Below, piece after piece: positions 1 to 62,983 of a stretch of 64,000 nt of DNA. This DNA is from Eledone cirrhosa (taxonomy: Eukaryota), in the NCBI GenBank assembly GCA_964016885.1, contig OZ024761.1, positions 31,000,001 through 31,064,000 of the forward strand. Direction: 5' to 3'. A program made the translations under genes and the position numbers. The stretch's first letter is position 1. The number at the start of each line of letters is the position of its first letter. The notes below the pieces were generated by a model. The model saw nothing but the letters and a program-made list of their open reading frames with translations, did not search any database and was not told the origin of the DNA.

Positions 1-3000
1 GCTATGTGCTTTTACGATTCTCTAGAGAGGCCGGAAGATAGGTAAATATTGCTGATGAGTTGTAACAACAACGAAACTAGTTCAATATTCCTTGTCTGGC
101 TTTCTGGAGAATAGAGGAAAGGTGTTTCCTCAAAAACCAGTATGACTCTAAAAACCGGTTTGTCTGTGTGTTTACATACGGAATAGCTGGCCACTCACAG
201 TAAAGTGACCAGTGAAAAAAACTTGGTACATCTACATATGTATACGTGTGTGTATTCATATACATACTAGTATTTCAGTATACATATATGGATGTACATC
301 TTTAACTTAATTGTTTAAGCGTCAGTCATACAAAAGTGAGTTACAAACGAAACGAAATTTAATTTCGTTTCGTTATTTGTTTTTATCGTCTCCGTTGAAC
401 CGGTACTTACTCACACTCTATGCAAATTAGTCTGCCCACTACTAATTTTCATAGAAAAAGCATATAACGCTATGTGCTTTTACGATTCTCTAGAGAGGCC
501 GGAAGATAGGTAAATATTGCTGATGAGTTGTAACAACAACGAAACTAGTTCAATATTCCTTGTCTGGCTTTCTGGAGAATAGAGGAAAGGTGTTTCCTCA
601 AAAACCAGTATGACTCTAAAAACCGGTTTGTCTGTGTGTTTACATACGGAATAGCTGGCCACTCACAGTAAAGTGACCAGTGAAAAAAAACTTGGTACAT
701 CTACATATGTATACGTGTGTGTATTCATATACATACTAGTATTTCAGTATACATATATGGATGTACATCTTTAACTTAATTGTTTAAGCGTCAGTCATAC
801 AAAAGTGAGTTACAAACGAAACGAATTTAATTTCGTTTCGTTATTTGTTTTTATCGTCTCCGTTGAACCGGTACTTACTCACACTCTATGCAAATTAGTC
901 TGCCCACTACTAATTTTCATAGAAAAAGCATATAACGCTATGTGCTTTTACGATTCTCTAGAGAGGCCGGAAGATAGGTAAATATTGCTGATGAGTTGTA
1001 ACAACAACGAAACTAGTTCAATATTCCTTGTCTGGCTTTCTGGAGAATAGAGGAAAGGTGTTTCCTCAAAAACCAGTATGACTCTAAAAACCGGTTTGTC
1101 TGTGTGTTTACATACGGAATAGCTGGCCACTCACAGTAAAGTGACCAGTGAAAAAAACTTGGTACATCTACATATGTATACGTGTGTGTATTCATATACA
1201 TACTAGTATTTCAGTATACATATATGGATGTACATCTTTAACTTAATTGTTTAAGCGTCAGTCATACAAAAGTGAGTTACAAACGAAACGAAATTTAATT
1301 TCGTTTCGTTATTTGTTTTTATCGTCTCCGTTGAACCGGTACTTACTCACACTCTATGCAAATTAGTCTGCCCACTACTAATTTTCATAGAAAAAGCATA
1401 TAACGCTATGTGCTTTTACGATTCTCTAGAGAGGCCGGAAGATAGGTAAATATTGCTGATGAGTTGTAACAACAACGAAACTAGTTCAATATTCCTTGTC
1501 TGGCTTTCTGGAGAATAGAGGAAAGGTGTTTCCTCAAAAACCAGTATGACTCTAAAAACCGGTTTGTCTGTGTGTTTACATACGGAATAGCTGGCCACTC
1601 ACAGTAAAGTGACCAGTGAAAAAAACTTGGTACATCTACATATGTATACGTGTGTGTATTCATATACATACTAGTATTTCAGTATACATATATGGATGTA
1701 CATCTTTAACTTAATTGTTTAAGCGTCAGTCATACAAAAGTGAGTTACAAACGAAACGAAATTTAATTTCGTTTCGTTATTTGTTTTTATCGTCTCCGTT
1801 GAACCGGTACTTACTCACACTCTATGCAAATTAGTCTGCCCACTACTAATTTTCATAGAAAAAGCATATAACGCTATGTGCTTTTACGATTCTCTAGAGA
1901 GGCCGGAAGATAGGTAAATATTGCTGATGAGTTGTAACAACAACGAAACTAGTTCAATATTCCTTGTCTGGCTTTCTGGAGAATAGAGGAAAGGTGTTTC
2001 CTCAAAACCAGTATGACTCTAAAAACCGGTTTGTCTGTGTGTTTACATACGGAATAGCTGGCCACTCACAGTAAAGTGACCAGTGAAAAAAACTTGGTAC
2101 ATCTACATATGTATACGTGTGTGTATTCATATACATACTAGTATTTCAGTATACATATATGGATGTACATCTTTAACTTAATTGTTTAAGCGTCAGTCAT
2201 ACAAAAGTGAGTTACAAACGAAACGAAATTTAATTTCGTTTCGTTATTTGTTTTTATCGTCTCCGTTGAACCGGTACTTACTCACACTCTATGCAAATTA
2301 GTCTGCCCACTACTAATTTTCATAGAAAAAGCATATAACGCTATGTGCTTTTACGATTCTCTAGAGAGGCCGGAAGATAGGTAAATATTGCTGATGAGTT
2401 GTAACAACAACGAAACTAGTTCAATATTCCTTGTCTGGCTTTCTGGAGAATAGAGGAAAGGTGTTTCCTCAAAAACCAGTATGACTCTAAAAACCGGTTT
2501 GTCTGTGTGTTTACATACGGAATAGCTGGCCACTCACAGTAAAGTGACCAGTGAAAAAAACTTGGTACATCTACATATGTATACGTGTGTGTATTCATAT
2601 ACATACTAGTATTTCAGTATACATATATGGATGTACATCTTTAACTTAATTGTTTAAGCGTCAGTCATACAAAAGTGAGTTACAAACGAAACGAAATTTA
2701 ATTTCGTTTCGTTATTTGTTTTTATCGTCTCCGTTGAACCGGTACTTACTCACACTCTATGCAAATTAGTCTGCCCACTACTAATTTTCATAGAAAAAGC
2801 ATATAACGCTATGTGCTTTTACGATTCTCTAGAGAGGCCGGAAGATAGGTAAATATTGCTGATGAGTTGTAACAACAACGAAACTAGTTCAATATTCCTT
2901 GTCTGGCTTTCTGGAGAATAGAGGAAAGGTGTTTCCTCAAAAACCAGTATGACTCTAAAAACCGGTTTGTCTGTGTGTTTACATACGGAATAGCTGGCCA

Positions 3001-3658
3001 CTCACAGTAAAGTGACCAGTGAAAAAAACTTGGTACATCTACATATGTATACGTGTGTGTATTCATATACATACTAGTATTTCAGTATACATATATGGAT
3101 GTACATCTTTAACTTAATTGTTTAAGCGTCAGTCATACAAAAGTGAGTTACAAACGAAACGAAATTTAATTTCGTTTCGTTATTTGTTTTTATCGTCTCC
3201 GTTGAACCGGTACTTACTCACACTCTATGCAAATTAGTCTGCCCACTACTAATTTTCATAGAAAAAGCATATAACGCTATGTGCTTTTACGATTCTCTAG
3301 AGAGGCCGGAAGATAGGTAAATATTGCTGATGAGTTGTAACAACAACGAAACTAGTTCAATATTCCTTGTCTGGCTTTCTGGAGAATAGAGGAAAGGTGT
3401 TTCCTCAAAAACCAGTATGACTCTAAAAACCGGTTTGTCTGTGTGTTTACATACGGAATAGCTGGCCACTCACAGTAAAGTGACCAGTGAAAAAAACTTG
3501 GTACATCTACATATGTATACGTGTGTGTATTCATATACATACTAGTATTTCAGTATACATATATGGATGTACATCTTTAACTTAATTGTTTAAGCGTCAG
3601 TCATACAAAAGTGAGTTACAAACGAAACGAAATTTAATTTCGTTTCGTTATTTGTTTT

Positions 3659-3660
<2 letters not shown>
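1..3660 (+). repeat. 468-bp tandem satellite, about 7.8 near-identical units, open at the left window edge; hammerhead-containing (retrozyme/PLE pLTR-like)
   Basis: Unit start GCTATGTGCTTTTACG recurs at 1, 469, 937, 1405, 1873, 2340, 2808 and 3276. The differences seen are single-base homopolymer indels. The last unit is cut at about unit position 385, where (TA)n begins. Confidence 0.97.
45..89 (+). ncRNA. Minimal type I hammerhead ribozyme, one per satellite unit (cores at 52, 520, 988, 1456, 1924, 2391, 2859, 3327)
   Basis: Stem I AATATTG(45-51)/CAATATT(83-89); core CTGATGA(52-58); stem II GTTGT-AACA-ACAAC; GAAA(73-76); palindromic mini stem III AACTAGTT; predicted cleavage after GUU at 82. 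Confidence 0.88.
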
Positions 3661-8770
<5,110 letters not shown>

Positions 8771-12164: not shown

Positions 12165-13290
12165 TTTCTGGGTCTACCTACTCTGTAACTTCCGTCAATT
12201 TTGATCGCCCTGCACTTTTTTATACAGCTATCGTCTTTCATGCGCATCATGTGACCACACCAATGTAATCTTCTCTCAAGTAAACAGCATCTGATCCCTC
12301 TTATTCCTAATTTCTCATTTAGTTCATTTATGTTTTGCCGTTTGCGTATATTACTATTACATATCCAACGGAGCATGCATGTTCCTTTCCAGTCTGTGCA
12401 GTTCCTCTGCACACAATGCCTATGTCTCACTGCCATGCAACATCGCTGTTCATATACAGGCATCATACAATCTGCCTTTCATTTTTAGAGAGAAACCTTT
12501 TGTAGCCAACAACGGTATAAGCTCTCTGAACTTATTCCATCCCGTTCTGACTCTGGCTACTGTACTTTCAGAGCACCCTCCACCACTGCTGATTTTGTCA
12601 TCCAGGTAACGGAAAATGTCCACTATTTCTATAGAACCATCTGGGCAATGGAAGGAGCTAGTATCCTGTGGGCACTTGCTACTTATTGCACCTGAGCATC
12701 GGCCACATATATAATCTACGTTCTTAGATAGCTTACCTGTGATCCCACTACATCTTTTATGTACCCATAGTTTGCATTTGGGACATAAAATGGAATTTCT
12801 AACTACTCCTTTCCTACACACTGAGCATGGCCATTTCCCAGAGGGCACCTGTGCCCTATTTTCCTTTCTACATACTAGAACTTTAGTCTTAGACAAGTTA
12901 ACTTTAAGGCCTTTTGATTCTAGGCCATGTTTCCATGTTTAGAATTTCTTCTCTAGTTCAGCCATAGATTCAGCTATGAGAGTTAGATCATCAGCATATA
13001 GAAGTTCCCATGAGCAACCGGTCTTAAACTCCTCTGTTATAGCCTGAAGGGCAATAATAAATAGGAGGAGCTAAGGACAGAGCTCTGATGAACACCAACT
13101 TTTACGCTAAATTCTTCACTATATTCATTGTTAATTCTAACCTTGCTGACTGTTTCTTTATACATGGCTTGTTAGCTCTCACAAGCCATTCATCTACACC
13201 TAGTTTTCTAAGAGCCCACCAGATAATGGAGCAGGGACTCTGTCAAAGGCTTTCTCCAAGTCAACAAAAGCTAAGTAGAGGGGTTTACAT
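12165..13290 (-). pseudogene. Decayed RTE LINE copy related to 7014-8375
   Basis: Frameshifted pieces [26 protein letters not shown]...WPCSVC, FRYL, ERRLHWCGH. Confidence 0.92.
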
Positions 13291-56799: not shown

Positions 56800-56834
<35 letters not shown>

Positions 56835-57043
56835 TAAAATAACATTAAAGTTTAAGCAAAGAATCGCTGCTTTCACCCTTAATGGGATCTTCTGAAACTC
56901 AAGCCCTCTTTGGATTTTAGTCTTCAAATTTATTATTATTACTATATATATATATATATATATAAAGTTATTCCGGGTTGAATCGGAGGTAACCACAGTA
57001 AGTAAGGTACTCAATACATTGCAGAGTATAAATGTTTTAATAT

Positions 57044-58034: not shown

Positions 58035-58037
58035 ATA

Positions 58038-58945
<908 letters not shown>

Positions 58946-58954
58946 TATATATAT

Positions 58955-59910
58955 ATATATAAGTATGTATACGTACATACATATATGTATACAGACGTAC
59001 AGTAGTATGTATACAAATCCACGGCCGGGGTACCGAAAACGATAAACAGAAAAAATGAAACAAAATTTCATTTCTCACTCTTAGTACGGCTGTTACTTAA
59101 ATATAAGTATGTATACGTACATACATATATGTATACAGACGTACAGTAGTATGTATATATATATACGTACATGCACACATATATATATGTACGTATGGAT
59201 TCACCGAACATTTATTATAATGCTCGGTGTGTTTGTAAACAAACATCCCGAATTAAGCCATACAGTGTCTAGCAACCATCGTTTGTTTACAAACGCACTG
59301 AACATTATAATAAATGTTCGATGAATCCATATGTACATATATATATGTGTGCATGTATGTATATATATATATATACATACTACTGTACGTCTGTATACAT
59401 ATATGTATGTACGTATACATACTTATATTTAAGTAACAGCCGTACTAAGAGTGAGAAATGAAATTTTGTTTCATTTTTTCTGTTTATCATTTTCGGTACG
59501 ATTAACTCACACGATATGCAAGTTAGGCTGCTCAGCCGTTAATATGCATAAGGAAAGTATATACTTTCAGACGTTCAATCATCTGGCAAGAAGGTATACA
59601 TTGCTGACGATAGCTAATAAGCTTGAAACTAGTACAACGTTCCTTTGTCAGGGTTGAACAAATGAGCAACGATAGTTGCTAGACACTGTACGGCTTAATT
59701 CGGGATGTTTGTTTACAAACACACCGAGCATTATAATAAGTGTTCGGTGAATCCATACGTACATATATATATGTGTGCATGTACGTATATATATATATAC
59801 ATACTACTGCACGTCTGTATACATATATGTATGTACGTATACATACTTATATTTAAGTAACAGCCGTACGAAGAGTGAGAAATGAAATTTTGTTTCATTT
59901 TTTCTGTTTA
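58955..59910 (+). mobile_element. Diverged dispersed relative of the 468-bp satellite: about 1.5 direct units (period about 426 bp) plus an inverted copy, hammerhead at 59599-59639
   Basis: CATTG-CTGACGA-TAGCT-AATA-AGCTT-GAAA-CTAG-TA-CAACG. Upstream GGTAC..ACTCACAC..TATGCAA.TTAG.CTGC aligns by eye with the satellite unit. Confidence 0.8.
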
Positions 59911-59925
59911 TATATATATATGTAT

Positions 59926-60058
59926 TTAGTCATGTAATAAACAACATAAGATGATTATTTGATTTACCAGTGGTTTCTTGAAGGCAGACACAACATCTGT
60001 CTTCAAGAAACCACTGGTAAATGAAATAATTATCTTATGTTGTTTATTACATAACTAA
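59926..60058. repeat. Palindrome made of two hammerhead 3' halves
   Basis: Centre TGAAGGCAGA-CACAACA-TCTGTCTTCA, then A-GAAA-CC-ACT-GG-TA-AATG on both strands. Confidence 0.75.
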
Positions 60059-62810: not shown

Positions 62811-62859
<49 letters not shown>

Positions 62860-62983
62860 AAAAGATATATATAAACCCATAGAGTAAATATTTATTATTA
62901 GTATGGATTAAGTTTAAGCAAAGAATCGCTGCTTTCACCCTATTACAGGTTCTTCTGAAACTCATACATATATACATACATAT

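Follow-up and report, generated by a model that had tools for sequence, protein, structure and literature searches.

Non-LTR retrozymes and their RNA circles have been described by Cervera and de la Pena (2020, PMC7229834), and the available text of this study and of a 2020 review (PMC7761336) proposes that multimeric cDNA is made from them by Penelope-like elements. The review states that the retrozyme repeats carry no motif which indicates their partner. Li, Clavereau and Pollet treat retrozymes as derivatives of Penelope elements, and report that one of nine predicted hammerhead dimers was active (bioRxiv 10.64898/2026.07.22.740005).

Penelope-like elements have an inverted arm, a tail which is often found at one end, and a bias towards TA (PMC8557442, PMC3846280). 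Frangieh et al. studied the Poseidon element PAc of Anolis in vitro and described two internal starts of reverse transcription, with both strands being extended (2024, PMC11167929). In the sections available, ribozyme cleavage was unnecessary for insertion and no difference in start site was seen between the strands. Two questions are stated as open in this field: the origin of the inverted, one-tailed Penelope insertions, and whether Penelope moves animal retrozymes via circular RNA.

The window analysed here is a stretch of 64,000 nt from Eledone cirrhosa (contig OZ024761.1, positions 31,000,001 to 31,064,000), and all coordinates refer to it unless a locus is named. It contains two related repeat families: S, a satellite with a 468-nt unit, and D, with a unit of about 425 nt, represented by an element at 58960-59910. 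It is likely that a Neptune-type Penelope-like enzyme produced the head-to-head D insertion, by copying a probably circular RNA from both DNA ends.

Anatomy of the D element and of the satellite array

The D element is not one copy but a pair of head-to-head arms (minus strand, 58960-59283; plus strand, 59281-59910), which ends at site B on the left (58960) and at site A on the right (59910). According to the arm mapping, the left arm consists, from the outer to the inner end, of unit positions ~366-311, a jump of about 290 nt that leaves no ribozyme, positions 21-1, and then 425-189. The arms share 3 nt at the central junction (59281-59283; arms 955-1284 and 1282-1911 of locus L001). The right arm, delimited by alignment and arm mapping, spans 1.5 units: positions 228-425 and 20-425, between which a short stretch is deleted where the units meet. 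It carries the only hammerhead of this copy, the left arm having lost its own.

On the plus strand, motif matches place an octamer-like site, ATGCAAGT in this copy, at 59516-59523. It is followed by a type I hammerhead motif at 59592-59644, which is recognized by its core and pairing and has no Rfam hit at the gathering score. Site B, where most insertions have the end of their opposite arm, is read through here (59849-59855); it lies 55 nt upstream of A. Between B and A, a hairpin forms the one-sided "tail" (59870-59909, -10.8 kcal/mol, z -3.3), and the site A terminus passes into (TA)n at 59910-59921, as seen in the sequence and in the end-plus-TA matches. The first-pass annotation had pointed to a GAAA..TTTC hairpin just before (TA)n, and it is indeed present in both families (z -3.3 in D and -4.1 in S), with a C-G to U-A change in D against S.

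The (TA)n target to the left of the insertion (58940-58959) also serves as TA tail to the adjacent element, which is hammerhead-like but unrelated. The latter (58036-58945, also found at 56800-56899 and 62839-62962) is another TA-flanked repeat with inverted arms, whose hammerhead-like core reads CAGAAGA for CTGANGA; the same repeat end flanks locus L108 and the C4 array. An inverted repeat of about 95 bp lies directly to the right of the D element (59926-60020).

The D element has no long non-repetitive ORF, no reverse transcriptase (RT) was found among the ORFs of the window, and a tblastn search of the window with eight Penelope proteins gave no match. It thus lacks what defines an autonomous Penelope element, an ORF with RT plus GIY-YIG between pseudo-LTRs (pLTRs). 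Elsewhere in the window, an open frame with a PHD-finger match (12453-12938, minus strand; Pfam PF00628, E 2e-6) is probably a host exon.

The window satellite is also head-to-head. Its right arm (1-3659, plus strand, 468-nt units) has its last predicted cut after 3357, B at 3592 and A at 3659, and it abuts a (TA)n-type microsatellite, the target of the array (3660-7015). The array reaches 3.9 kb further left than the window, where the left arm terminates at site B; in total, 6.9 minus units, with their end at B (unit position 401), face 9.4 plus units, with theirs at A (position 468).

The kinship of the two families, first claimed by eye, is significant in two comparisons (z 24-38). The local alignment of 3100-3662 with 59284-59912 has a score of 252 (z 37.8; 500 dinucleotide shuffles gave 39.7 +/- 5.6, with a maximum of 63), and the S unit 1-468 aligns with 59284-59910 with a score of 178 (z 23.8). 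The alignment extends through the final base of each copy, TTTGTTTTT followed by AT at 3659 and TTCTGTTTA followed by T at 59910, so that both run into (TA)n at the matching base, as had been proposed. Sites A and B can both be aligned between S and D. The contrast between a "satellite" and its "dispersed cousin" holds for the kinship, but not for the idea of separate kinds: the two show one architecture with different arm lengths. D variants are also present in four sequencing runs of undefined kind, which has no bearing on expression.

Fixed termini, targets and junctions

Judged from the mapped copies, the fixed ends are two, A and, 55-67 nt upstream, B, and they flank a hairpin. A single fixed end was considered, and dropped for these two. 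Exact patterns of 35 letters, each consisting of an end plus TA, matched the genome 2846 times for D site A and 2510 times for D site B, compared to 4 times for a control D site which has 7 nt of TA homology, more than A or B. Reversed control patterns had no match. For S, site A plus TA gave 1980 matches and one young variant of site B plus TA gave 101, two counts which are not comparable because older S subfamilies carry other letters at B. The S and D termini number in the thousands and are found on many contigs. Like retrozymes, which are dispersed and have no LTR, PBS or PPT, the copies show no terminal direct repeats beyond the unit tandems.

The pairing of the two ends was counted locus by locus. 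In a sample of 51 distinct D loci obtained with internal probes (60 fetched, 9 duplicates removed), a motif caller recognized at least one of the two sites as an end in 49. It called both ends in 27 insertions, among which 25 are A/B, one is B/B (L012) and one was called A/A (L159); on inspection, the latter is a miscall of a B-like end. In family S, 47 insertions were examined, and all 36 that have both ends at A or B are A/B. The first 20 new loci selected by a B end include 15 with A at the far end, one ambiguous case (L086), two whose second arm ends elsewhere and two without a second arm. The first 20 loci selected by A have 21 A ends, 16 of them with B opposite and five without an S arm having an end. 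Six arrays taken from an internal probe or from the window comprise five A/B and one with B only. Five second S arms are shorter than 30 nt and were read by eye. Against a clean A/B rule stand the B/B insertion L012 in D and the ambiguous L086 in S.

It had been suggested that the element has one defined end, far from the ribozyme cut, and that scattered termini would argue against it. The termini do pile up, and the end lies 276 nt (D) or 302 nt (S) away from the predicted cut; what has to be revised is the number, as there are two start sites in strict pairs and not one.

Twelve two-arm D insertions were examined for target duplications. Three with clearly non-TA flanks have duplications of 13-15 nt, including 2-3 nt common to the element, and the others have TA flanks, which are uninformative in this respect. 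The A/B ends also hold in non-TA targets. An inverted truncated arm, a one-sided tail, a microsatellite target and a short target duplication give S and D the anatomy of insertions mobilised by Penelope.

Added bases are present in 9 of 29 S central junctions. In the 20 others, an overlap of at least 3 nt is found 8 times, compared to 6.7% in simulations (p 2e-5, a value that may be inflated, the BLAST ends being taken against one reference unit). The predicted cut is passed by 23 of the 29 A arms and 25 of the 29 B arms (4 of these 29 insertions were picked with a ribozyme-spanning probe), and the inner ends do not pile up at the cut, 4 of 58 being within 10 nt. A linear cut-to-cut monomer copied once cannot yield such arms. 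An exact twin-priming fit of the inner ends was rejected: there is a weak post hoc excess near B (13 of 29 A-arm inner ends, in an interval chosen after looking). Symmetric junctions are few (L083, L090, L115), with inner ends within 3 nt in about 3 of 29 insertions. The arm lengths within an insertion are correlated, with a Spearman coefficient of 0.48 for 25 insertions selected by their ends and of 0.65 for 15 young insertions.

Ribozyme, unit haplotypes and the Penelope partner

Both families are non-coding tandem repeats whose units each carry a type I hammerhead motif. In the window D copy, the core CTGACGA is at 59604-59610, GAAA at 59625-59628, and the cut is predicted after GUA at 59634. 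Helix III has two pairs on a palindrome (ACTAGT), a type which is reported to work in dimers (PMC4209133). Across eight multi-locus haplotypes, the catalytic core is constant save for N7 and the cut base H17, and 5 of 16 helix pairs change on both sides (two in stem I, three in stem II). The helix cells are paired in 93.8% of cases, compared to 30-49% in slid controls, and the compensatory events are few because the eight haplotypes represent only about three lineages. The hammerhead core, and a stem II that differs completely in D and still pairs, are as first described. The covariation shows that the fold is constrained across about three lineages, which agrees with the proposed selection on the ribozyme but is no proof that the window copy is active.

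Several features suggest that the S and D ribozymes are weak: the 2-bp helix III, the U.U with which stem II begins in D, and the GUU triplet of the window S hammerhead. The window D copy also has an A.C mismatch in stem I. A search of the window with Rfam at the gathering score gave no matches, and the minimum-energy folds of the hammerhead region are no better than those of shuffled sequences (z -0.6 and -0.8) and do not form helix III. The support for the ribozyme therefore comes from the core and the covariation.

Among 447 matches from S and D units, 443 read ATGCAAAT. This octamer precedes the ribozyme core by about 90-100 nt in both families (unit position ~36-43 in S) and is possibly a promoter element, perhaps of the snRNA type known from newt satellite 2. 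At least eight further hammerhead-like cores of the form CTGANGA..GAAA occur in the window in several other families, some as opposite-strand pairs (20697, 26971, 27305, 54684, 54834, 57093, 57104 and 57449). A tandem dimer of about 459 nt with a TA end, in L177:5510-6419, belongs to a different hammerhead-bearing family.

Young insertions have substitutions fixed over all the units of both arms. Five are fixed across the 20 units of L076 and seven across the 6 units of L085; L084 has four substitutions in 38-39 of its 39 units, and one private change. The 38 units of array C12 have seven singletons and no shared variants, a star-like pattern, and both singletons and homogeneity could in part be assembly effects. 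Young arrays with two arms showed no variant common to a unit and its counterpart in the opposite arm. In the D element, the three homologous segments have two substitutions in common, which also occur in 3 and 2, respectively, of 58 other units; recurrence is possible, because both are of the CpG type. One haplotype per insertion would fit the repeated copying of one monomer, for example rolling-circle copying. Arrays reach 39 units and arms about 30, and the youngest arrays rank among the longest.

Partly shared variants were observed in 5 of 20 multi-unit S insertions; in array C3, one variant is found in 3 of 6 units. L100 (G000:C1 5738093-5752744) has a 31-unit arm with patterned, shared higher-order variants, which looks like early higher-order repeat formation from a retrozyme insertion, and would be typical of later expansion. 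Some arrays therefore also expand or homogenise after insertion.

The genome has more than 10,000 GIY-YIG candidates, and 50 Penelope loci were examined. The long frames carry YLDDC and a CX4CXXC linker. As a linker of this type is a mark of Neptune-type elements (PMC8557442), they can be provisionally assigned to this type. L176 (G000:C1 145872308-145875121, minus strand) has an open Neptune-type frame of 938 aa with RT and GIY-YIG, and is 97% identical to several truncated copies; its family appears young and is possibly active. Among the ORF-coding copies, L186 is head-to-head with a tail of about 45 nt on one side, and L181 and L186 both have symmetric junctions. The L182 family has two ends about 40 nt apart, and its 21 matches, some of which are duplicated, comprise 9 short, 11 long and 1 cut off.

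In the chimera L112, an S arm that terminates at A is linked by 40 nt of S to a truncated arm of the L182 family, whose own end is the short site in TA. As the sequence reads, this chimera is one event in which two RNAs followed the same end rule. It is the one clear co-insertion of S/D with Penelope among 97 S/D regions screened, which also include a weak chimera (L097). An nhmmer search of the 50 Penelope loci with S and D found no pLTR or 3'-end homology, and gave only independent S/D insertions and TA-rich noise. The partner assignment therefore relies on one clear and one weak chimera.

Several candidates were discarded. The S/D copies which lie next to ORFs in L188 and L187 have TA on their flanks and represent independent insertions, not a parent pLTR, and the L140 copy was set aside, being judged by orientation only. 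A look-alike of D site A at the short end of the L182 family was rejected, as 118 of 500 shuffles reach its score. A regex scan of the 3' regions of the Neptune-type L182 and L176 detected no hammerhead core of their own. When the L176, L177, L182 and L116 families were inspected, a AACCGGTA-like motif was observed 100-150 nt before the 3' end of three of them, and also just after site A in S; it may be due to chance.

Mechanism, alternatives and known systems

The S and D families are very probably retrozymes mobilised by Penelope, and we are fairly confident that their insertion is primed from both ends of the target. The reiterative copying of one monomer is probable, and we lean slightly towards a covalent RNA circle as the template. 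The first-pass annotation had proposed that the array is a retrotransposition product primed at TA, and the anatomy of the insertions (paired fixed ends, TA targets) supports this reading. Transcription and cleavage by dimeric hammerheads would produce a monomer RNA, which a host ligase would close into a circle. The enzyme would nick both strands of (TA)n at positions roughly 10 nt apart, so that 3' overhangs are left. Synthesis would be primed at A from one target end and at B from the other, with each cDNA making 0.1 to 30 turns of the template before the two are joined at their ends via a few paired or added bases. More tentatively, and at somewhat less than even chances, two-ended priming could be obligate: a dimer would load one start site per broken end, and two rolling circles would operate at once on the ribozyme-made circle. 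This would give a head-to-head satellite of up to ~18 kb in one event, with no separate second-strand primer, and from a retrozyme which has no sequence in common with the enzyme's RNA.

The same enzyme might use the same ends on a long, uncleaved multimeric transcript of an existing array, with no circle. The Anolis element used mainly uncleaved RNA in vitro (PMC11167929), the S/D ribozymes look weak, and arrays of up to 39 units are available as templates. We consider this unlikely, because all units in the two arms of an insertion carry a haplotype specific to it, which requires a one-unit bottleneck at each generation, and young arrays have no variants common to matching units of opposite arms. 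Just as doubtful is the proposal that insertions start with one or two units per arm and are lengthened afterwards through slippage or unequal exchange. Local amplification is the view preferred by Li et al. (bioRxiv 10.64898/2026.07.22.740005), and the patterned variants of L100 and the variant in half of the C3 units point in the same direction, but the longest arrays include the youngest ones, C12 has a star-like pattern, and both arms tend to be long together.

The inverted arm could also result from fold-back self-priming of one cDNA, or from antisense RNA, and not from a second target end. The symmetric junctions of L083, L090 and L115, and of the ORF-coding L181 and L186, are compatible with the self-priming model of Arkhipova et al. 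(2013, PMC3846280). The inner ends mostly differ between the arms, however, the arms of L112 stem from two RNAs, and fold-back gives no reason why the second arm should stop at a different fixed site, B; its probability appears low. It is hardly credible that there is no defined start and that the ends result from chance TA microhomology or from breakage driven by the microsatellite. Both A and B are TTTA-like and have 2-5 nt in common with (TA)n, but the 4 copies ending at the control site largely refute this idea; non-TA targets show the same ends, which also fall on homologous bases in the two families. The counts bear on both open questions: there is one arm per start site and one haplotype per insertion, the arms run across the cut, and a chimera follows the same rule. 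With these counts, the Penelope-retrozyme mechanism can be tested directly, and the genome also supplies a substrate and an intact 938-aa enzyme frame for an in vitro assay. If the mechanism is true, a mobile RNA would also give rise to satellite DNA in a single step.

S and D are real, abundant new families of a known class, the non-LTR retrozymes, with a Penelope "tail"; the surprise is limited because this class and, in qualitative terms, its layout have been published before. No published counts of A/B pairing or arm-haplotype tests were found, in a search mainly outside subscription papers and supplements. A term search of an octopus repeat annotation (PMC13282606) found neither ribozymes nor retrozymes.

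The metazoan non-LTR retrozymes are similar in being non-coding tandems of a few hundred bases with one type I hammerhead each, a low GC content, thousands of copies and Penelope-like elements in the same genome (PMC7229834). The axolotl HHR_Amex2 has, as described, the same U.U at the base of stem II as D. RNA circles were shown in those studies, whereas S and D are known here from sequence; conversely, the text available there includes no terminus map, A/B head-to-head layout or haplotype test. S and D also differ in having no homology to a Penelope pLTR among the 50 loci.

In L1 twin priming, two target-strand primers lead to a head-to-head insertion. In S and D, unlike in L1, the second primer uses a fixed site, B, and both arms can be many units long.

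Neptune, Poseidon and Naiad elements, as far as the cited texts describe them (PMC8557442, PMC3846280), share with S and D the partial tandems, an inverted 5'-truncated copy, an often one-sided tail, a bias towards microsatellites or (TA)n, and target duplications, of 8-10 bp in their case. S and D differ by the absence of an ORF, a tail of 55-67 nt compared to 30-40, arms of up to 30 units, and an A/B pairing which is counted here as near-obligate.

A parallel to the two termini is found in Anolis PAc, in the portion of the study available: two starts bound the tail and lie close to a stem-loop, at a distance from the ribozyme cut; the target is AT-rich, both strands are cut and a dimer is predicted (PMC11167929). 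The template was linear in that case and the tests left out whether each insertion uses one of each start, which is the pattern that the S and D insertions display.
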